NCBI GenBank assembly: GCA_964621085.1 | Contig: CAZUKY010000003.1 | Coordinates: 8,290 to 72,289, forward strand | DNA from: an uncultured Gammaproteobacteria bacterium | Lineage (GTDB): Bacteria > Patescibacteriota > Patescibacteriia > JACQRZ01 | DNA length: 64,000 nt | Direction of reading: 5' to 3' | In this document: piece by piece, positions 5,441 through 50,566 of the stretch | Numbering within the stretch: the stretch's first letter is position 1 | How the letters are laid out: each line of letters begins with the position of its first letter | Made by a program: the position numbers and the translations under genes | Notes under the pieces: generated by a model | Database searches by the model: none | Seen by the model: the letters and a program-made list of their open reading frames with translations, nothing else | What the model was told of the DNA's origin: nothing

Positions 5441-6445
5441 ATGGAAAAACGGCGGATTACAATTATTATTCCTGCATATAACGAAAAGAAGGGCATCGAG
5501 GCTGTTTGGCTGAGCGTTTCCGATGCTATTGCCCCACTCGAGCAACGCTATGCCTTCGAGATTCTTTTTGTCGATGACGGCAGTACGGATGGTACGGCGC
5601 AGGAACTCGAGTCGCTCACGGCGCGCGACGGCCGAGTCGACTTTCTTTCCTTTTCCCGGAATTTTGGAAAAGAGATCGCGACGACCGCGGGCCTCCATGC
5701 CGCAACGGGGGACGCGGCAATTATGCTGGATGCCGATTTGCAGCATCCGCCCGCGCTGATCCCCGAGTTTATCCGCAAATGGGAAGAGGGAGCGGAGATC
5801 GTCATCGGCTTGCGTACGAATGACGCCAGCCAGAGCGTGGTTCGCAAGCTGGGCGCGCGGTTTTTTTATGCCGCAATGGATCGGATAAGTGAAACCAGAC
5901 TTGATCGCGGCGGTACTGACTTCCGACTCTTGTCCCGTCCGGTCATCGACGCATTCAACTCATTTACCGAGCGCAGCAGAATCACGCGCGGTCTCGTCGA
6001 CTGGCTGGGATTCAAGCGGGCCTACGTTCCCTTTGCCGCGCCGGATCGCGCGGGCGAAAAGGGACGGTACGGCTTTCTTCGTCTTACCCACCTGGCACTT
6101 TCGAGCTTTGTGTCTCACAGCCTTTTTCCACTCAAATTCACTGGCTATCTCGGCGTTTTCATTTCAGTCGCATCGGGACTCCTCGGCGTTTTTATTCTCG
6201 TCGAAAAATATATTCTCGGCGATCCGTTGGGTCTTGATTTCTCCGGCCCGGCAATGCTCGCGGTTGTCATCATCTTTCTCGTCGGTATTATTCTTTCCTG
6301 TCTTGGCCTCATTGCCCTCTACATCGCAAACATCCACGCCGAGGTCATGAATCGGCCGCTGTATGTTGTTCGCAAACGCTCGCACCCTGTTCGCACTCCG
6401 GAAAATACGCCCTATGAAAATCCTCTGGTTCACATGGAAAGATAG
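5441..6445 (+). CDS. GT2-family polyprenyl-phosphate glycosyltransferase (GtrB/ArnC/DPM1-like)
   Basis: IIIPAYNE, DDGSTDGT and a DAD..H motif. Two C-terminal TM helices match the GtrB/ArnC architecture. Confidence 0.85.
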   Translation: MEKRRITIIIPAYNEKKGIEAVWLSVSDAIAPLEQRYAFEILFVDDGSTDGTAQELESLTARDGRVDFLSFSRNFGKEIATTAGLHAATGDAAIMLDADLQHPPALIPEFIRKWEEGAEIVIGLRTNDASQSVVRKLGARFFYAAMDRISETRLDRGGTDFRLLSRPVIDAFNSFTERSRITRGLVDWLGFKRAYVPFAAPDRAGEKGRYGFLRLTHLALSSFVSHSLFPLKFTGYLGVFISVASGLLGVFILVEKYILGDPLGLDFSGPAMLAVVIIFLVGIILSCLGLIALYIANIHAEVMNRPLYVVRKRSHPVRTPENTPYENPLVHMER

Positions 6446-7511
6446 AAAGAACCCGCTCGCGGGGGGTGCGGAAGTGGTCAATGAAGAGCTCGCACGCCGG
6501 TTAGCTGCCGACGGACACGAGATTATCTTTCTTGTGGCAGGTTTTCCTGAATGCGCAGAGCAAGAAACAGTGAGCGGCTATCGGGTCATTCGCGTCGGGT
6601 CCCGTTGGAGCGTCTACTGGAACGCATATCGCTATTACAAAAATCATTTGTGCGGATGGGCGGATCTGGTCATCGACGAAATGAACACGATGCCATTTTT
6701 TTGCAAGTTCTACGTGAAGGAGAAAAACATCCTCCTTGTCCACCAACTTTGCCGCGATATATGGTTTTACGAGATGCCGTTTCCGCTCAGTGTTTTGGGC
6801 TACGTAGCGGAATTTTTTTATGTGCGACTCTTGAACGACCGAAGGACGATAACGGTGTCGGAGAGCACAAAGAAAGATCTCGAACGATTCGGATTCCGCA
6901 ACATCCATGTCATTAGCGAGGGGATAGAGCTTGAGCCACTTGCAGATTTGAATGCAGTCCAAAAATACGACCAGCCGACGCTCCTCGCCCTCGGATATCT
7001 CCGCTCGATGAAGCGTACGCATCTGATTCTCGAGGTATTCGAAATAGCTAAATGCATACTGCCGAACCTTCAGCTGATAATCGCGGGAGACTTCGAAAAT
7101 TCATATGGCAGAAACGTGGCAAAAAAAGCAGCCGCATCGCCGTTCCGCGATTCAATCCGAATGCTTGGGAAAATATCAAAGGAAAAGAAAATCGAGCTTC
7201 TGCAAAAAAGCCACCTCCTTGTAGCAACACCCGTGAAAGAAGGCTGGGGTTTGACAGTTACGGAGGCGGCAAGCCAGGGGACACCGGCGGTCGTGTATGA
7301 TGTCGACGGCCTGCGCGACAGTGTGAGAGATGGCGAGACGGGTTTGATATGTAAAAGAAATACGCCGCAGGAAATGGCAGAGAATATAGCTGCATTATTG
7401 AAAAATAAAGAGAAATATGATTTCATGAGAAGAACGGCACTGAAATGGGCAGAAGGGATAACATTTAGAGAAGGATATAAGAATTTTATAAGCAATGTGG
7501 GTGCACTATGA
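6414..7511 (+). CDS. GT4-family (group 1) glycosyltransferase
   Basis: GT-B fold with the C-terminal [35 protein letters not shown] (E-x7-E-type motif). Start chosen at [10 protein letters not shown], overlapping the upstream gene by 32 nt. GC content drops in the last third of this gene. Confidence 0.8.
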
Positions 7512-42104: not shown

Positions 42105-42115
42105 TGTTACCCTCC

Positions 42116-43879
42116 ATGGACCCGATCGAAGAAATCAAGGCACGGCTCGATATCGTTGAGGTAATCAAGGGATATACCCCGCTTGTTCTTGCCGGCGCCA
42201 ACTACAAGGCGCGCTGCCCGTTCCATCAGGAAAAAACGGGTTCGTTCATGGTGAGTCCATCCAAGCAGATTTGGCACTGCTTCGGGTGCGGGGCTGGCGG
42301 GGATCTTTTCGGCTTTATTATGAAGCAGGAGGGTCTTGAGTTCGGAGAGGCCTTGCGTCTTTTGGCCGATCGGGCAGGCGTGACGTTGTCGGATCGCCAG
42401 TCGTCCTCTGTTGCGCGCGGAGAGAAAAGCCGTCTTGTCGATATGCTCGAACTCGCGGCGAAGTGGTACCATCAAGCGCTTTTGCGCTCGGCTGCCGCCG
42501 AGCGCGCCCGCGAGTACATCCGGACGCGCGGTCTTGACCAGGGCCTTATCGACGAGTTTACGATCGGGTTTGCATTGCCCGAGCGGGAGTCGCTCTCGCA
42601 ATTCCTCTTATCGCGCAAGTTCACTGCCGGCGAGATCATCAATGGCGGCCTTGCGATCAAGAAAGAGTTCGGGTACGGCATTTTCGACCGTTTCCGCAAC
42701 CGGCTCATGATCCCGATTCGGAATGCGCATGGATCCGTTGTCGGCTTTTCCGGGCGCATCATCGATGCGAATGACGAGTCGGCAAAATACATCAACTCCC
42801 CGCAAAGCATTCTCTACGACAAGGGAAAGATTCTCTTCGGGCTGGATATGGCAAAGCAGGAGATCCGGCACAAGGGTTTCGCGATACTTGTTGAGGGACC
42901 GATGGATTTTTTTGCCGTATGGTCCGGAGGCATGAAAAACGTCGTCGCATCTTCGGGTACGGCATTGACGGTGGAGCAGATCGGGTTGCTGAAGCGCTTT
43001 GCGCACTCGCTCTACCTTTGTTTCGATAACGATACCGCCGGCAATCAGGCGGCCTTGCGCGGCATCGAGCTTGCGTTGCGCGAGGGCCTTGATGTCAAAA
43101 TTATCCGCCTGCCCTCCGACGAACGCGGTACGGCGCTGTACAAGGATCCCGATGAGTGTATAAAAAAGGATCCGGCTGCCTGGCAGCAATCCGTCGAACA
43201 CGCCGTCTCATTCGTCGAATTCTATTGCGACGTGGTCGCACCCTTTGCCGCACATGCTGATCCATTCAAGAAAAAGACAGCAGCTCGGCGCGTTCTGGGC
43301 GTCATTCAGCTTATTCCTGACAACCTTGAACGGGATATTTGGGTAAAGTTTGTCGCAGCACGATTCGGGTTTTCCGAGCGGATTCTATGGGATGAGTTGC
43401 GCGCGCTTGATGGGGCGGCATTGCGCGATCGCGCAGGGAGCCAGGTATCCAAAAGCGCGGAGGAGTCGGAGAGCAAGCGACACTCGCCGAGTCGCGACGA
43501 GATCGTTCTGGCACTCATCCTTTCTGCGCCGGAGCGCCGTTCGTTTGCAGCCGACCTCGAACCCGCTGCGTTTGCGCGCGAGGATCATCGTGCAATCTTT
43601 GTCGCCGTGCGCGAGGGGTCTGGCATTCCTTCTGACTTGGCGGCAGAGGCAGCTCGCCTTGAACTTCTGGCATCGCACGCGTACCCGAACGCTGAGAGCG
43701 CCGAACTGGACGCTATCGCGCGCGAATGCGTCATCCTCATGAAGCGTGAGTATCACAAGCAACGGCTGAGCGAGCTGCAGCGTCTGGTGCGGCACGCGGA
43801 AGAAAGCGGTGATGCGGCTGCCGTTGCCTCGTATCTCAAAGAGTTTGCCGAGCTTCAAAAGGCAGAGCCGGGTAATTAA
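42116..43879 (+). CDS. dnaG: DNA primase DnaG
   Basis: Zinc ribbon (CPFHQEKTGSF...HCFGCGAGGD), TOPRIM core (EGPMDF..DND) and a C-terminal helical domain. Start chosen at MDPIEEIK; the track ORF begins further upstream inside bcp. Confidence 0.88.
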   Translation: MDPIEEIKARLDIVEVIKGYTPLVLAGANYKARCPFHQEKTGSFMVSPSKQIWHCFGCGAGGDLFGFIMKQEGLEFGEALRLLADRAGVTLSDRQSSSVARGEKSRLVDMLELAAKWYHQALLRSAAAERAREYIRTRGLDQGLIDEFTIGFALPERESLSQFLLSRKFTAGEIINGGLAIKKEFGYGIFDRFRNRLMIPIRNAHGSVVGFSGRIIDANDESAKYINSPQSILYDKGKILFGLDMAKQEIRHKGFAILVEGPMDFFAVWSGGMKNVVASSGTALTVEQIGLLKRFAHSLYLCFDNDTAGNQAALRGIELALREGLDVKIIRLPSDERGTALYKDPDECIKKDPAAWQQSVEHAVSFVEFYCDVVAPFAAHADPFKKKTAARRVLGVIQLIPDNLERDIWVKFVAARFGFSERILWDELRALDGAALRDRAGSQVSKSAEESESKRHSPSRDEIVLALILSAPERRSFAADLEPAAFAREDHRAIFVAVREGSGIPSDLAAEAARLELLASHAYPNAESAELDAIARECVILMKREYHKQRLSELQRLVRHAEESGDAAAVASYLKEFAELQKAEPGN

Positions 43880-44023
43880 TGCAGTATGCATCTGAATTTT
43901 TCGCGCACTTCTTTCCTCATTTTCGAGATGCATTGTATTTCCGGACCTTTTTGATATGATTCTTTATTATAATGGGGTGACTATGCGTATTTGAAGGTTC
44001 TATTCCTCCAAATCTTTTTAATT

Positions 44024-45349
44024 ATGGCAAAAATACCGATGAAGAAAAAAAAGCCGGCGCGCGCTGTTGCGGCACCAAAGGCGAAAAAGTCTCCCCCGCG
44101 AAAGGCTGCGCCTGTGAAGAAGTCGGTTGCACCCGTCAAAAAGGCTGCGACAAAGAAGCCGGCGAAAGCAGCCGTCAAAAAGGCTCCGGCGCGAAAAGCC
44201 GCCGCACCGAAGAAGGTTGCCGCCCGTCCGGTTGCTCCCGCGCCGCGCGTGAAGCGGGAAAAGGCGCCGTTTCCTGGCCCCGATGTTCTCACTGCCCTGA
44301 TCGCCCGCGGCCGTTCGCGCGGTTTTTTGACGGAGGATGAGGTCCTTCATGCCTTCCCGCACCTCGAGGATTACGGGGAAGAGTACGAGGATTTTCTTGA
44401 CGAGCTTGACCTGCATAGCGTGCAAATCATCGAGCGGCGCAGTGGTCTTCTTGCTCAGCCCGCACCCGAGGTCCCGGCAAAAGGCAAGAAGGCAGAACCG
44501 GCCCATATCGACCTTTCCGATATTTCCGCCGACTCGATCCAGATGTATCTGCGCGAGATCGGAAAAGTTCCGCTCTTGACCGGCGAAGAGGAGATCTCGC
44601 TTGCCAAACGCAAGGACCGAGGAGACAAGGAGGCGGAACGCCGGCTGATCGAGGCGAACTTGCGCCTTGTCGTTTCCATTGCAAAAAAATTCGCGGACAA
44701 GAGCCTTTCCCTGTTGGACCTGATCCAAGAGGGGAATATGGGTCTGTTTCGCGCGGTCCAAAAATTCGATTACCGCAAAGGGTACAAATTTTCTACGTAT
44801 GCGACGTGGTGGATTCGCCAGGCGATCACGCGCGCGCTTGCCGATCAGTCCCGCACCATCCGTATTCCGGTGCACATGGTCGAGACGATCAATCGATTTC
44901 AGGGGATTCAGCGCCAGCTGATTCAAGACCTTGGCCGCGAGCCGCTGCCCGAAGAGATCGCGTCAGAGATGGGCGAGACCATCGACAAGGTGCGCCACAT
45001 CATCAAGATCAATCAGGATACGATCTCGATCGATACCTCGGTCGGCGACGATGACGAAAACAGCACGCTGGTCGACTTCGTGGAAGACGAGCGCACCATG
45101 ACACCAGACCGCGCTGCAGGCCTGCAGATCCTCCGCGAGCGAATGCTTGAGATCGTAAACCTCTTGCATCCCCGCGAACAGAAGATTCTTGAGTGGCGCT
45201 TTGGGCTCGTGGATGGCGTCTCGCATACGCTTGAAGAAGTCGGCAAGGAGTTTGGCGTCACGCGCGAGCGCATCCGGCAGATCGAGGCAAAGGCCTTGGA
45301 GAAGATCAAAAAGCAGTACGGGGTAGAGCGCTTGAAGGATTACATGTAA
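44024..45349 (+). CDS. rpoD: RNA polymerase primary sigma factor (sigma-70) with K/A/P-rich histone-H1-like N-terminal tail
   Basis: Regions 2-4 are clear ([37 protein letters not shown] and C-terminal [19 protein letters not shown]). The N-terminal about 80 aa are AAPKAKK/PVKK repeats. Confidence 0.88.
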
Positions 45350-45413: not shown

Positions 45414-45827
45414 ATGGCACGAGAGCTTGCGCCGCGGGACTTCTTTTCTCGCTGGCCGTCGTTGTTTGACTGGGAGGAGAGCAGGGAGTGGCTTTTGCCA
45501 AAATCTCCCGAGATCACTATTTCAGAAGACGATGAGCGCGTCTATGTGGAAGCGCCCGTTCCCGGCATTGATCCGGACAAGATCGAGGTGACGTTTGACA
45601 AGGGCGTTCTCTCCATTCGCGGCAGCGAAGAAGAAACGGAAGAGGATAAAAAGAAGAAGTATTTCCGCAAGAGCGCTCGCTCGTATTCCTACCGCGTAAC
45701 CGTGCCCGGTGATATCGATCAGGCGCGCGATCCGGAGATCACGTGCAAAGACGGAATCCTTACCGCAACATTTGCCAAAGTGGCGGGCGCAGCAGAGCCA
45801 AAGCGATTGTCGGTAAAGAGGGGCTAA
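45414..45827 (+). CDS. Hsp20/alpha-crystallin-family small heat-shock protein
   Basis: Alpha-crystallin domain pattern (ISEDDERVYVEAPVPGIDPDKIEVTFDKGVLSIRG..GILTATF). Confidence 0.8.
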   Translation: MARELAPRDFFSRWPSLFDWEESREWLLPKSPEITISEDDERVYVEAPVPGIDPDKIEVTFDKGVLSIRGSEEETEEDKKKKYFRKSARSYSYRVTVPGDIDQARDPEITCKDGILTATFAKVAGAAEPKRLSVKRG

Positions 45828-45853
45828 AGAGCAATAAAAAAGCAAGAAACATC

Positions 45854-45882
45854 TTGACCATATGGCATCGGTGTAGTATTAT
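45854..45882 (+). promoter_or_regulatory. sigma70-type promoter TTGACC-N17-TATTAT upstream of tRNA-Asn
   Basis: Near-consensus hexamers with 17 nt spacing, about 70 nt upstream of the tRNA. Confidence 0.55.
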
Positions 45883-45953
45883 GCCAGAGCAATATTGATT
45901 ACTGAGCTCCGCTATAATGAGAAAGACAGCGGAGTTATTCAAAATATTTATAT

Positions 45954-46025
45954 TCCGGGGTAGCTCAGCGGCAGAGCAGTGGACTGTTAATCCATTGGTC
46001 GTGGGTTCGAATCCCACCCCCGGAG
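45954..46025 (+). tRNA. tRNA-Asn (anticodon GTT); CCA not encoded
   Basis: Manual fold: acceptor tccgggg/ccccgga; anticodon stem gtgga/tccat with loop ctGTTaa; T-arm gtgggttcgaatcccac. Confidence 0.85.
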
Positions 46026-46357
46026 GAGAGTAGGTCGTTACGAACTCACGTACCGACCTATTTTCGTTTTGGAAATAAAACAAAATTCACTTTCAAAGGC
46101 ATTGCAAAATATTCTCAAGTGGCAACATTTTATAACTTTGTGAGCATACATGCTCTGGGTTCGAGTCCCACTCGGTACCGGGATCAGAGAGGTCCTTAAC
46201 ATCTTCATTTCGTCCTGTGGCGCGGCTGGCAGCCGATCGATCAAAGTTACGCTATCAGTCAGACGAGTTTGAGTGAGTGGGGTAGTAATTGAGAGTTGCT
46301 TTATGAGTTTATGTGCTGTAAAATCAGTTGGAATTGTAAGAAGCTGTGTAAATATGT

Positions 46358-47224
46358 ATGGCTAAAAAAATAAAAATCGCTTCTGAGCAGGATCAGAAAC
46401 GCATTAGCTTGACTGTTTCAAGGGATGAAGCAGATAAGAAAATCCAGGCTCGAATTGAAGAAGGTGAAAAACTACTTAAGGATCCAATAAACTCTTCAAA
46501 TGATTTGGAAGACAAAAGATTACGATATAATGAATGGTCTGATTACAATTGCGAATTACTGCGCCGCATATTTGATGGTGAACAATTAAGTAGGGAATAT
46601 AATCAAGCCGGATTCGGTGTTTTTAGCATGTCGCCGACATTTAGTGAGAAGATAGAATATGTTCATATTGATATACAGTATTCTCTAAATAAATTGCGTT
46701 CAATATTAAAGCGCCTCGATTTATATCCTGAGCCCAAAGTGATGAAAGAAATAAGTGAATTCAATCAAGGGCAAAGTGAAATTAGTCGAAATATTTTTAT
46801 TGTTCATGGCCTTGATGACGGCATGAAGCAAACCGTCGCTCGATTCATTGAGAAGCTTAAACTCAATCCCATTATATTGCATGAGCAACCAAATGAAGGC
46901 AGGACTCTTATTGAAAAATTTGAAAACTATTCGAAAGTAGGATTTGCTGTCATCATACTCACTCCAGATGATGTTGGTTGTGTAAAAGGCGGAATACTCC
47001 AACCAAGGGCCCGACAAAATGTTGTCTTAGAACTTGGTTATTTTATTGGATTGTTAAAAAGAAAAAATGTTTGCGCTCTTCTTTTTGATGATGTAGAAAT
47101 CCCATCAGATCTAAATGGCATTGTGTACGTCAAAGTAGATGATGCGGGTGGATGGAAATTTAAATTAGCAAGAGAAATAAAATGCGCAGGAATAGATGTT
47201 GATCTCAACATGTTATCTAGTTGA
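46358..47224 (+). CDS. protein with N-terminal helical domain of unknown function and C-terminal TIR-like nucleotide-binding domain (pfam10137 / CAP12-PCTIR type)
   Basis: The C-terminal about 135 aa match the TIR-like pattern: IFIVHGLDDG..VARFIEKLKLNPIILHEQPNEGRTLIEKFE..GFAVIILTPDDVG..RARQNVVLELGYFIG..VCAL..DVEIPSDLNGIVY. The family assignment is from recall, not a search. Confidence 0.65.
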   Translation: MAKKIKIASEQDQKRISLTVSRDEADKKIQARIEEGEKLLKDPINSSNDLEDKRLRYNEWSDYNCELLRRIFDGEQLSREYNQAGFGVFSMSPTFSEKIEYVHIDIQYSLNKLRSILKRLDLYPEPKVMKEISEFNQGQSEISRNIFIVHGLDDGMKQTVARFIEKLKLNPIILHEQPNEGRTLIEKFENYSKVGFAVIILTPDDVGCVKGGILQPRARQNVVLELGYFIGLLKRKNVCALLFDDVEIPSDLNGIVYVKVDDAGGWKFKLAREIKCAGIDVDLNMLSS

Positions 47225-47859
47225 CCATGCTCCTCTTTATCGACGAATCAGGCGATTCGGGATTAAAAATCGAAGAAGGATCCAGTAGGTATTTCACAAT
47301 CGCTCTGGTTTGCTTTGACGATAAAGAAGAGGCACTTGCGTGCGACCAAAGAATCGAGCTTCTCAAGCGCGAGCTTGGCTGGAAGCCAAATGATGAATTT
47401 CACTTTAAAAAGAATTCAGACAAGGTGCGTCGTGCGTTTCTTCAGGCCATTGCCCCGTACAACTTTTTCTACCACGGGATAGTAATAAACAAAGATCTTA
47501 ATAAGCTCTGGGGCGAGGGTTTTCGCGATAAAAAGTCTTTCTACAAATACGCATGCGGGCTCCTGTTTTCAAATGCAAAGGACCAGCTCAAAGATTCAAT
47601 TGTTGTTATCGATGAAAGTGGTAGTCTGGATTTCAAGAAGCAGCTGGGAAGCTATCTCAGACGCGTTATGAATGACGAGAAAAAGATCGCTATCAAGACT
47701 GTGAAGATGCAACGCTCGTCTGGTAACAACCTGCTCCAGCTTGCCGACTATATTGCAGGCGTTATCAATCGGTCGGTTCTGGAAAAGAGAAAGGGAAGCC
47801 AAGAATACCGAAAAATAGTCAGTCATAGAGAAATCCGGGTGCAAATTTGGCCAAAATAA
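47221..47859 (+). CDS. DUF3800-family protein
   Basis: N-terminal LLFIDESGDSG and C-terminal LLQLADYIAGVINR are the two hallmarks of DUF3800. ATGA overlap with the upstream TIR-like gene. Confidence 0.65.
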   Translation: MTMLLFIDESGDSGLKIEEGSSRYFTIALVCFDDKEEALACDQRIELLKRELGWKPNDEFHFKKNSDKVRRAFLQAIAPYNFFYHGIVINKDLNKLWGEGFRDKKSFYKYACGLLFSNAKDQLKDSIVVIDESGSLDFKKQLGSYLRRVMNDEKKIAIKTVKMQRSSGNNLLQLADYIAGVINRSVLEKRKGSQEYRKIVSHREIRVQIWPK

Positions 47860-48154
47860 ATACTCCCGAACCTATCCATTACTGGAACGCGGTGATAAAC
47901 ACCACAATTCGGTCCGAGAGCAATTCCATACTTAGTATAGACGCTCCAGAAGAAAAATCAATACAAACTCTCTCTTTTTATTTAAAATATAAGCATTTTA
48001 GCTATTTTACCATTGACAAACACAGCAATTTATGGTATGCTTGGTTGACGTTCTTTCGAAGAAGTCCTGGCTTTTTTTCGGCTATAAAGCTTAATTTTAG
48101 GTCGAAAGAAGGCTAGGACAGGATTCTAGTCACAGCAAAGAAGGAGGTTTTCAG

Positions 48155-48511
48155 GTGGCCAAAGTGGACGAGTCGCGGCTTGCCGTGATCAGGCCGATGT
48201 TCCAAATCGGACTTCCCATGGTCGTGATCGCGCGCACGGTGCGCTGCTCCACGGCCACGCTCCAGAACGACAAGGCCCGCCTCGGCAGCGAAATCGCCGA
48301 TGCGCCCGGCTCCAAGGCGGAGATCGCCAGGCTCGCTACCAAGCGGCTTGCCGAACTCCAGGCCGGACAACCGTTTTTCCATTCGGGAGAGAAGGTCGAT
48401 TGCATCCAAGAAGTCCACCTTCCGAATCCTCTTTCCAGACACCTCCTCGTTGCGCGCGGTCATGAATACACCTCCTGTCAATACGACAGAAGATGCACTC
48501 ACTTCCTTTGA
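48155..48511 (+). CDS. small GC-rich hypothetical protein (possible HTH regulator) with GTG start
   Basis: Perfect AAGGAGG Shine-Dalgarno 8 nt upstream of GTG at 48155. GC-rich gene inside the AT-rich island. The minus-strand ORF 48113-48502 is the alternative reading. Confidence 0.4.
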   Translation: MAKVDESRLAVIRPMFQIGLPMVVIARTVRCSTATLQNDKARLGSEIADAPGSKAEIARLATKRLAELQAGQPFFHSGEKVDCIQEVHLPNPLSRHLLVARGHEYTSCQYDRRCTHFL

Positions 48512-49099
48512 GTGAAACCTTCTGTCTGCGAAAATGCAAGCTAAAGCATACGCAAAATTATTCGAAAAGTCAAGAGTGCCGCCTCAAATTAAGAAACAGG
48601 TCCTCGTTTTCAACACAACCGAGTTGATACTACGCTGGAATTCGATGATTTGTCCGATTTGTATAATCAGGTCAGCAGATTGTCGCCACATATTGCCTCG
48701 GAGTAGGTGAGTTATTGCTGCCTGCACGACAGGAGAGCTCGCGGTTTTCGAAAAAGCCGCGCGCTGAATTGCCAACTCCATCCCGATGGCGTTTATGAGG
48801 TAAAATCTCTAAAATAATAGACATCTTAAACTCTAATCCATGCAGATATGGCAAAAGGGAACAGCAGCCAGCGAAAGGAGAAAAAGAAGCCGAAGAAGGA
48901 CAAGGAGAAAGGACGGTAAGTGAAAAATTTTTTAAGAGGAAAAGAGAAGAGATCGTTTCGAACTGAGACGGTCTTTTTTCAATTCCAGTGGAGAGTCTTC
49001 GACTTCAAATGTACTCTATCGCCCTCATCGAGATTATCAGCTTCGCCGGCGGAATAGTCCCTTGCCATTTGGACAGAAATCAGGTATGCTATTCCGATT

Positions 49100-50566
49100 A
49101 TGGCGCAAGAAACTGTCGTCCTTCGCTTCAGCGAAGTGACCTTCGAATATAATGAAACAAAGCACATCCTCGATGAGGCGAGTTTTTCCATTCGCAGGGG
49201 TTCAAAAGTCGCGCTCATGGGGCAAAACGGGGCCGGAAAGACGTCGCTCTTCAAATTAATCCTTGGCGAGCTTAAACGAAAGGAAGGCGTCATTTCTCTG
49301 ACGCCAAAAGACGCTAAGGTAGGCATCGCGAAGCAGGTGATCCCGCTCGAGCAGATGGACATGACTGTTCGCGATTGGTTCGCGAGTACGTTTGAAACGG
49401 CGCCGTACAACCTCGACAAGCTGATTGCCGATGTCCTTGATGCGGTGAATCTGCAGACCGATTGCACGAAAAAAGTGCGTGAGCACTCCGGCGGCCAGCA
49501 AGCCCGCCTCTTGCTTGCGTATGCATTGATCCAGGACCCGGACATCTTGCTCCTTGACGAGCCGACGAATAATCTTGATCAGGACGGCATTGACCATCTC
49601 ACCGGTTTTCTCATGGCCCATGACACGACCGTGTTGGTGATTTCGCATGATGCTGATTTTTTGAATGCGTTTACCGACGCCGTCCTCTACCTTGATGTGC
49701 ATACGCATAAGATTGAGCAATACGTCGGGAACTACTCGGATGTCGTCGAGGAGATTGCCGAGCGGATCGAGCGGGAACGGATGGCCAACGCGCGTGCCGA
49801 AACGGCGATTCGCAAAAAGAAGGAGCAGGCGGAAGTCTTTGCGCACAAAGGGGGCAAGCTGCGCTCAGTGGCAAAGCGCATGCGCGAATACGCGGAAGAT
49901 ATGGAGGAGAATATGGTGGACGTACGCCGCGAGGACAAGACCATCCGCACATTTGAAATACCAGTGCAGGAATTCTCATTCGAGTTTTCCGGAAAAATCG
50001 TCGAGATGCGCGAGGTCAGTATCCTGAAGCACGGCGAACCGGTCACAAAAGATCTCGACATGGTGCTCCGTCGCTCTTCCCATCTGTTGCTCGCAGGTCC
50101 CAATGGCATCGGCAAAAGCACGCTTCTTAAAAAAATAGTCGCCGGTCAAGCCGATGGTGTTACGGTCGGGGAGGGAGTCCGTGTCGGCTATTACAGTCAG
50201 GATTTTTCCGTCCTGAATTTCGAACAGAGGGCGTACGACTGCCTTGATGAGGTCATGGAAGAGAAGGATGAGCATCGGCTCCGCTCCACTGCTGCAGGTT
50301 TTTTACTTGACGGTAAAGTTCTTGCGAGTCAGATCAAATATTTGTCCGAAGGGCAGAAGGGCCTCTTGTCGTTTGCGCGATTGACATTGATGCAGCCCGG
50401 ACTCCTTATTCTTGATGAGCCGACCAACCACATCAATTTTCGCCATTTGCCAGTGATCGCCCAAGCACTTGATTCCTACGAGGGAGCCCTGATCATGGTA
50501 AGCCACATACCCGATTTCGTCTCGCAGATCCGGATCGATACGACTATCGATCTCAGCAAGCTGTGA
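49100..50566 (+). CDS. ABC-F family ATPase (tandem ABC domains, no TMD; Uup/EttA-like)
   Basis: Two Walker A motifs (GQNGAGKTS, GPNGIGKST), two ABC signatures (HSGGQQ, LSEGQKG) and an inter-domain linker rich in K/E/R. Confidence 0.88.
   Translation: MAQETVVLRFSEVTFEYNETKHILDEASFSIRRGSKVALMGQNGAGKTSLFKLILGELKRKEGVISLTPKDAKVGIAKQVIPLEQMDMTVRDWFASTFETAPYNLDKLIADVLDAVNLQTDCTKKVREHSGGQQARLLLAYALIQDPDILLLDEPTNNLDQDGIDHLTGFLMAHDTTVLVISHDADFLNAFTDAVLYLDVHTHKIEQYVGNYSDVVEEIAERIERERMANARAETAIRKKKEQAEVFAHKGGKLRSVAKRMREYAEDMEENMVDVRREDKTIRTFEIPVQEFSFEFSGKIVEMREVSILKHGEPVTKDLDMVLRRSSHLLLAGPNGIGKSTLLKKIVAGQADGVTVGEGVRVGYYSQDFSVLNFEQRAYDCLDEVMEEKDEHRLRSTAAGFLLDGKVLASQIKYLSEGQKGLLSFARLTLMQPGLLILDEPTNHINFRHLPVIAQALDSYEGALIMVSHIPDFVSQIRIDTTIDLSKL

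Follow-up and report, generated by a model that had tools for sequence, protein, structure and literature searches.

DUF3800 proteins adopt an RNase H2-like fold, carry the motifs DE and QxxD, and serve as the accessory protein in type VII retrons (PMC7736814). Their RNase H fold and their association with noncoding RNAs and with Cas12 have been reported as well (PMC10910872), and they have been linked to mobile elements and defence systems (PMC13594972). They accompany Cas12a2 and Cas12a3 loci (PMC10910872, PMC13594972) and also occur at a Cas13 kinase operon (10.64898/2026.08.25.746378). DUF3800 genes furthermore associate with 11 unrelated structured RNA motifs (PMC5737381). The link with the DUF3800-IX RNA was reported by Weinberg et al. 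(2017; PMC5737381), and is one of the protein-RNA associations of that survey. In the literature searched, later papers on drum or skipping-rope RNAs reported no functional work. PDC systems, in turn, are largely unvalidated defence candidates derived from 'guilt by embedding' (PMC12988326). Here, we analyse a stretch of 64,000 nucleotides (nt) of contig CAZUKY010000003.1 (the window), in which a TIR gene of the PDC-S35 type is followed by a DUF3800 gene and, on the opposite strand, by a DUF3800-IX RNA. Both units are already catalogued, PDC-S35 in PADLOC and the DUF3800/DUF3800-IX association since 2017.

A preliminary description of this locus had joined the TIR and DUF3800 genes into one overlapping two-gene module. 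Our results point instead to two separately inherited, horizontally acquired units that lie head to tail in an AT-rich island and do not form a two-gene system, a reading to which we give a probability of about 0.8 (coordinates in Table 1). Accepting the pair as a module would have put a false 'new two-gene TIR system' on the candidate list. The locus would rather be a clean example of how an operon can be mimicked by small promoterless cassettes stacked at a tRNA hot spot.

Comparative evidence on the gene pair

No relative of the TIR protein was found in 80 loci with DUF3800 orthologs, even at E <= 10 (tblastn), and the DUF3800 control matched in 80/80. These loci represent one genome per species, carry orthologs of 52-73% identity with up to 6 kb of flank per side, and come from Patescibacteria, Omnitrophota, Acidobacteriota, Thermodesulfobacteriota, Chloroflexota, Verrucomicrobiota, Bacteroidota and other phyla. 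Clustering of all flanking open reading frames (ORFs) revealed no conserved protein neighbour of the DUF3800 gene in the 80 loci; the commonest neighbours, restriction-modification genes, occurred at 4-6 loci each. Starting from the TIR gene, we scanned metagenomes with aligned TIR homologs and obtained 80 loci with 38-49% identity over full-length matches, 44 of which have at least 700 base pairs (bp) downstream. None of these 80 loci contains a DUF3800 gene (tblastn, a hidden Markov model built from the DUF3800 orthologs, and a search for the DE...QxxD motif) or a DUF3800-IX RNA, and no neighbour family of the TIR gene is conserved among them.

The nearest relatives live apart as well. The four closest TIR homologs that we looked up (49-54% identity) have neither a DUF3800 gene nor the RNA beside them: P0002 (52%) is preceded by genes for a type I HsdR and a YgjP-like protein and followed by a DUF4268 gene, P0004 (54%) adjoins SIR2_2 and DUF7380 genes, P0007 (50-53%) adjoins tyrosine recombinase genes, and P0013 (49%) is surrounded by genes without a family match. 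The closest DUF3800 ortholog (P0122, 87% identity) sits behind a PRiA4_ORF3-family gene, with a gap of 3 nt. The two genes were never syntenic in either set of 80 loci or around these homologs, and the proposed module does not survive this comparison. Because the comparative data show no recurrence, we regard the adjacency of the two genes as accidental. It had also been stated that the pairing is not a named defence system, which is true, but only because the pairing is not recurrent.

Identity to relatives and base composition tell the two genes apart. There are more than 1000 homologs of the DUF3800 protein, of which the best 120 share 67-87% identity and are nearly all 207-218 amino acids (aa) long; among these 120, all with an organism name are Patescibacteria. 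The best non-self homolog of the TIR protein reaches 52-54% identity, and this asymmetry argues against joint inheritance. The GC content is 0.359 in the TIR gene and 0.439 in the DUF3800 gene, and amounts to 0.567 in rpoD and 0.527 in the ABC-F gene. At third codon positions (GC3) it is 0.28 in the TIR gene, 0.50 in the DUF3800 gene and 0.64-0.69 in host genes, which fits separate origins. Furthermore, DNA similarity between the island and all ortholog loci sets in at 47218-47238, right at the ATG (47227) or only a few bases away from it, and is lost at 47928-47967; for the closest ortholog locus it extends to 47967 and spans the RNA promoter. These limits indicate that the conserved unit consists of the DUF3800 ORF, the RNA and the RNA promoter, and that the TIR gene lies outside.

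The junction of the two genes was described earlier as an ATGA overlap. It reads ...TCT AGT TGA CC ATG CTC..., with the TIR stop codon TGA at 47222-47224, a gap of 2 nt, and the DUF3800 start codon ATG at 47227; the supposed overlap does not exist. A mechanical ORF list offers an alternative in-frame start, TTG at 47221, which would give a TTGA overlap. The DUF3800 orthologs are all about 210 aa long with the N-terminus ML(V/I)FIDESGD, and the public gene call for exactly this sequence is a DUF3800 protein of 210 aa. Hence, ATG 47227 is the real start. Translational coupling, as proposed at the outset, is likely from the 2-nt spacing, although not through an ATGA overlap. A promoter scan of the window showed no visible promoter of the DUF3800 gene itself. 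The two tightly juxtaposed genes are probably co-transcribed, and the DUF3800 gene here probably depends, by read-through, on the TIR gene being transcribed and translated, as a local accident of insertion.

This arrangement might also be explained by a genuine but rare two-gene system of the Thoeris kind, with the TIR domain sensing infection or producing a signal and the RNase H-like DUF3800 protein acting as effector, or the reverse. In its favour, the two genes share a strand and are only 2 nt apart, the second shows no promoter of its own, each family has a flavour of defence, and both genes sit in one foreign island. Yet, the two do not co-occur in 160 loci sampled from both sides or around the nearest homologs, the DUF3800 cassette is found equally tight behind unrelated genes, including housekeeping genes, and the GC3 values of the two genes differ. 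In addition, PADLOC lists the TIR family as a single-gene candidate, no neighbour of that family is conserved, and the RNA already serves the DUF3800 gene as its obligate partner. No ThsA or ThsB model of PADLOC matches at the locus, where the neighbour of the TIR gene is the DUF3800 gene in a pairing that is not conserved. We therefore consider such a two-gene system highly improbable.

Several points weigh against our reading of two independent units. The 2-nt spacing makes co-transcription and translational coupling likely at this locus. A functional interaction specific to this lineage would be compatible with the comparative data alone, the TIR-DUF3800 arrangement is seen in one genome only and thus provides no population evidence either way, and the TIR relatives were sampled at 38-54% identity, with no closer ones in the databases searched. 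We see only a very slim chance that the DUF3800 gene and the TIR gene upstream of it function jointly in this single lineage.

Upstream neighbours in other genomes put the tight spacing in perspective. In 20/78 ortholog loci, the DUF3800 start is preceded by a same-strand ORF (at least 100 aa) whose end is no more than 40 nt away. Eight of these 20 upstream genes are restriction-modification or nuclease genes: four encode HsdM, and the others an HsdR C-terminal fragment, a type ISP enzyme, an N6/N4 methylase and a PD-(D/E)XK/RNase H-like protein. The remaining upstream genes include those for NadA, SHMT, MurC, ProB, a pseudouridine synthase and a GNAT protein. Most ortholog loci have a larger upstream gap or an opposite-strand neighbour. 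Tight spacing behind unrelated genes is a habit of the cassette, and is thus no evidence of a partnership with the TIR gene. The restriction-modification bias does lend some support to the suggestion in the preliminary description that DUF3800 genes are associated with defence, in line with a published report (PMC13594972).

The same counts bear on another explanation, namely that the DUF3800 gene and its RNA form a general accessory of whatever gene is upstream, such as an addiction or stabilisation module or a regulator, with the TIR gene as its current client. The 20 loci with a close upstream gene, eight of them restriction-modification or nuclease loci, would agree with this, as would the conserved DNA that starts at the DUF3800 start codon, so that no conserved promoter is seen. 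However, upstream genes such as those for NadA, SHMT, MurC, ProB and pseudouridine synthase give no functional logic, and most loci have the larger gaps or opposite-strand neighbours mentioned above. Moreover, neutral flanks diverge anyway at 65-77% DNA identity, so that a sharp edge of homology says little on function. We find an accessory role of this kind improbable.

At four ortholog loci (L008, L031, L045 and L054; DUF3800 start at about 6001), the cassette lies directly behind hsdM of a type I restriction-modification operon, with gaps of -20 to +7 nt. These hsdM-adjacent cassettes are reminiscent of PrrC-type genes embedded in type I restriction-modification operons. An HsdS-like ORF occurs about 1-2 kb downstream in four loci, which may or may not be the same four.

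The DUF3800 gene and its convergent RNA

The DUF3800-IX RNA (Rfam RF02968), a three-way-junction small RNA that was absent from the preliminary description, matches with 48.5 bits (gathering score 36.8; E 1.3e-8). In a first check, the same RNA was found in the same place and orientation in 11/11 ortholog loci. We built our own covariance model, R1, from these 12 RNA sequences (window plus 11 ortholog loci) and searched it against the window and the 80 loci. It scored 92.9 bits in the window, where it widened the match to 47850-47929. Exactly one match was present in the window and in each of 79/80 ortholog loci, always convergent with the DUF3800 gene; in the sole locus without a match (L006), the contig ends one base past the gene match. 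Locus L161 also carries the RNA. The 80-nt model match includes about 8 nt of flank beyond the RNA, and in all loci but one its low-coordinate end has an offset of -12 to +21 nt relative to the stop codon. The U-rich tract at the RNA end is antisense to the last DUF3800 codons.

The structure of the RNA is under clear constraint. In the alignment of 80 sequences, 97.7% of cells are standard pairs and 18 of the 22 pairs show compensatory changes, and all controls were far lower. Several G-U pairs are conserved (for example in 51, 60 and 78 of the 80 sequences at three positions), which identifies the minus strand as the transcribed strand. The junction and loop sequences are nearly invariant, and the window copy folds as a three-way junction with a folding z-score of -4.9. 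A near-consensus TTGACA / TATAAT-like pair lies at a fixed distance upstream of the RNA in most of the 45 loci printed, and the TA...T hexamer begins at the modal position in 48 loci. Judged by these patterns of conservation, the DUF3800-IX RNA is an independently transcribed, structurally constrained and obligatory neighbour of the DUF3800 gene. Both families score above curated thresholds and are adjacent, and nothing differs from the association of Weinberg et al. (2017). What our comparison adds to it is the co-occurrence in 79/80 loci (the 80th being at a contig end), the convergent orientation, the tail over the stop codon and the positionally conserved promoter.

Two other roles were considered for the RNA. 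A mere terminator of the DUF3800 gene is ruled out by the positionally conserved promoter on the opposite strand and by the strand-specific G-U pairs. A guide of the RNase H-like protein was judged less likely, because the RNA has no hypervariable single-stranded segment and its junction and loops are its most conserved parts.

The earlier assignment of the second gene to DUF3800 is well founded (PF12686, E 8.5e-15, 56.2 bits against a gathering score of 21). The AlphaFold2 (AF2) model of the protein (predicted template modelling score, pTM, 0.75) has an RNase H-like fold of the RNase HII type. D6, E7, D129 and the Q171-L-A-D174 stretch (Q-x-x-D) are invariant in the orthologs. In the model, D6-E7 ends strand 1, D129 ends a later strand, and D174 lies in the Q-x-x-D helix, so that the invariant D6, E7, D129 and D174 would occupy the positions of the DEDD residues of RNase HII. 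A profile sequence search gave no solved-structure relative of the protein, and this mapping of the active site accordingly rests on the predicted fold and the invariant residues. On the predicted structure, the candidate active site of the protein is complete, and none of its four candidate carboxylates varies.

PADLOC contains DUF3800 models, and model M04A of PDC-M04 matches the protein weakly (E 6.6e-10). The PDC-M04 models match neither the TIR protein nor the two overlapping ORFs at 48113-48511, and no paper naming PDC-M04 was found in the literature searched. A tblastn search of phages with the DUF3800 protein gave no match, and its plasmid matches were distant DUF3800 genes only, at about 25% identity and mostly from Leptospira.

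How might the protein and the RNA work together? By analogy with type III toxin-antitoxin systems and retrons, the RNA may be bound to the DUF3800 nuclease and restrain or license it. The abundant RNA would bind the nuclease, and loss or alteration of the RNA would free it. We tentatively suggest, at somewhat less than even odds, that the DUF3800 gene and its obligate RNA are a self-contained protein-RNA conflict module of an uncharacterised kind: an RNase HII-like nuclease held or directed by a three-way-junction RNA, spread across Patescibacteria and other phyla, and often inserted into restriction-modification operons.

The likeness to type III toxin-antitoxin systems of the ToxIN-like kind lies in the combination of a nuclease protein with a dedicated structured RNA driven by a strong promoter, and in the possible working. 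In contrast to those systems, the RNA here is single-copy and convergent rather than a tandem repeat array upstream of the toxin, and the DUF3800 protein has a predicted RNase HII-like and not a ToxN-like fold. Type VII retrons, which consist of a reverse transcriptase, a noncoding RNA and a DUF3800 effector, likewise combine an RNase H2-like DUF3800 protein with a dedicated structured RNA (PMC7736814). However, no reverse transcriptase was found among the neighbouring ORFs, the Rfam scan was significant for the tRNA and DUF3800-IX only, and the retron DUF3800 proteins are without the Q of QxxD (PMC7736814), whereas Q171-x-x-D174 is kept here.

Some considerations count against a nuclease bound by its RNA. 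The model of an RNA that restrains the nuclease is an analogy, and its nuclease activity, its binding of RNA and any protection against phage are predictions, as is the NADase activity discussed below for the TIR protein. Furthermore, a role as cis-antisense fits the anatomy of the locus, where the DUF3800 transcript has to extend into the RNA gene. According to this alternative, the RNA is mainly a cis-encoded antisense RNA in the style of type I toxin-antitoxin systems, which base-pairs with the convergent DUF3800 mRNA at the 3' end of the latter and so triggers mRNA decay, instead of binding the protein. The convergent layout, the RNA 3' tail that overlaps the stop codon in most loci (within the offsets given above), and the strong and conserved RNA promoter next to an mRNA with no visible promoter would all be consistent with it. 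Conversely, the structure is selected on the RNA strand, and its conserved G-U pairs would be A-C mismatches on the mRNA strand; the near-invariant junction and loop sequences suggest recognition by a protein; and the DUF3800-I RNA is found on either side and in either orientation of its gene (PMC5737381), which argues for action in trans. An antisense role in the main seems unlikely to us.

The conserved unit has a fixed architecture, with a strong RNA promoter, a terminator over the stop codon and a DEDD-like set that is intact. The model of an RNA antitoxin or RNA-licensed nuclease is thereby directly testable. Positions 47227-47967 define a construct of about 740 bp for asking if the RNA restrains or guides the RNase H2-like nuclease.

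Three side observations concern individual ortholog loci. Locus L003 carries a second DUF3800-associated motif, DUF3800-V (RF02964, 40.4 bits), at 573-659 on the minus strand, about 5 kb from the DUF3800-IX cassette on the same contig, which suggests two DUF3800-type units in one neighbourhood. In L043 and L079 (around 6001-6630), a stop codon or frameshift splits the DUF3800 ORF in two, with the RNA still present; either the copies are decaying or the assemblies may be in error. A Kaiserbacteria contig that also bears the cassette (L017) contains a group I intron (Rfam, 70 bits) at 202-514 on the plus strand, which is unrelated to the finding.

The TIR protein

The preliminary description had assigned a C-terminal TIR-like domain of the pfam10137/CAP12 type to the first gene, and this is borne out by the PF10137 match (aa 145-261, E 1e-37, 129.2 bits against a gathering score of 24.7), by fold matches and by an aligned motif. 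The alpha/beta domain of the AF2 model matches the TIR domains of TIR-STING/Cap12, SARM1 and ThsB (Foldseek), and a profile of the TIR-protein homologs matches both Cap12 (E 2.7e-11) and PycTIR in such a way that the R-x-N-V-x-x-E-x-G motif lines up. Residue E225 does not vary among 25 homologs. The model has a mean confidence score (pLDDT) of 80.5 and contains a helical bundle, mostly with pLDDT >90, followed by a disordered linker and the alpha/beta domain. The bundle, at aa 22-118, agrees with the helical N-terminal domain described earlier.

A PADLOC search, as had been recommended, returned a full-length match to PDC-S35 (E 2e-72; aa 28-286, profile positions 6-262 of 264), and five PDC-S35 models match the protein. 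Like other members of this single-gene candidate, the TIR gene is a stand-alone gene in variable, often defence-rich or integrase-bearing contexts, and no tested feature of its protein differs. No paper naming or experimentally validating PDC-S35 was found in the literature searched. A phage protein family of unknown function, phrog_16442, matches the whole protein including the N-terminal helical domain (E 2e-66), which indicates that this architecture is also carried by phages or prophages. On these sequence matches, we classify the TIR protein as a stand-alone PDC-S35-type unit that has kept the TIR glutamate motif.

Cap12 (TIR-STING of CBASS, the cyclic-oligonucleotide-based antiphage signalling systems) and PycTIR (Pycsar) are NAD+-hydrolysing TIR effectors that share PF10137, the fold and the R-x-N-V-x-x-E-x-G motif with our protein. 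In contrast to them, it is without a cyclic-nucleotide sensor domain and has the helical bundle in place of STING. No CD-NTase or pyrimidine cyclase gene lies near the TIR gene, whose neighbours are tRNA-Asn and the HSP20, DUF3800 and ABC-F genes, and the NCBIfam Cap12 equivalog models give 37 and 31 bits against a cut-off of 450. The protein may thus work like the Cap12 and PycTIR effectors, but is not a component of CBASS, Pycsar or Thoeris. Possibly, it acts alone as an NAD+-depleting abortive-infection protein. The helical domain would sense an infection cue or drive oligomerisation, as can be imagined by analogy with filament-activated TIR-STING, in which case the bundle would serve sensing or assembly. 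The assembled TIR domains would then hydrolyse NAD+ and stop the growth of the infected cell.

The AT-rich island and neighbouring genes

The two same-strand genes, first TIR and then DUF3800, are contained in an AT-rich island directly 3' of tRNA-Asn, at the place given in the preliminary description. The GC content is 0.35-0.44 inside the island (about 46200 to 48100) and 0.52-0.60 in the flanks, where the GC-rich housekeeping surroundings reported earlier comprise dnaG, rpoD and the HSP20, ABC-F and Sua5/TsaC genes (Table 1). No integrase was found in the island. A repeat search found no att-like direct repeat of the tRNA-Asn 3' end flanking it, only a 16-nt T-arm-like remnant (46156-46171). 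For lack of both, the island borders stay approximate. In an Rfam scan of 45500-49200 at a permissive E-value, tRNA-Asn and DUF3800-IX alone were significant, and two other matches were at chance level.

Table 1. Features of the island and its flanks, in window coordinates.
Feature	Position	Strand	Basis or remarks
dnaG	42110-43879		left flank
rpoD	43991-45349		left flank
HSP20 gene	45414-45827		left flank
tRNA-Asn (anticodon GTT)	45953..46026	+	ARAGORN; Rfam tRNA 73.5 bits; left border of the AT-rich island
AT-rich foreign segment, about 2.1 kb, carrying both cassettes	46027..48112		GC contrast; borders approximate
TIR gene, 288 aa, PADLOC PDC-S35 type, stand-alone	46358..47224	+	stop TGA 47222-47224
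N-terminal helical bundle of the TIR protein	aa 22-118 (nt 46421-46711)	+	AF2 model
TIR domain, CAP12/PycTIR type	aa 145-276 (nt 46790-47185)	+	PF10137, Foldseek, profile alignment
DUF3800 gene, 210 aa	47227..47859	+	start ATG 47227; PF12686; RNase HII-like predicted fold
DUF3800-IX RNA (Rfam RF02968), three-way-junction small RNA	47858..47921	-	convergent with the DUF3800 gene; U-rich 3' tail overlaps the stop codon
Promoter of DUF3800-IX RNA, sigma-70 type, TTGATT-16-TATACT	47934..47961	-	promoter scan
ABC-F gene	49100-50566		right of the island
Sua5/TsaC gene		-	right of the island

The remnant at 46156-46171 (context 46140-46185) is a copy of the tRNA-Asn T-arm, TGGGTTCGAGTCCCAC, identical at 15/16 positions and lying 154 nt downstream of the original. 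Its flanks differ and look like the 3' part of another tRNA. The remnant may be the scar of an earlier integration at the tRNA-Asn hot spot.

To the right of the RNA promoter, the plus strand carries a near-consensus promoter at 48013-48041 (TTGACA-17-TATGCT, plus an upstream TG), then AAGGAGG and a GTG-start ORF at 48155-48511 (118 aa). This ORF is overlapped by a minus-strand ORF at 48113-48502, and for the pair (48113-48511) the public gene call favours the minus strand. The block of about 400 bp that holds them has a GC content of 0.58 and lies between AT-rich stretches. Neither ORF has a Pfam, NCBIfam or PADLOC match, and the plus-strand ORF has no PHROG match either. Finally, a tiny and strongly basic ORF, MAKGNSSQRKEKKKPKKDKEKGR, occupies 48848-48919 in the AT-rich spacer upstream of the ABC-F gene, and could be a leader peptide or nothing.

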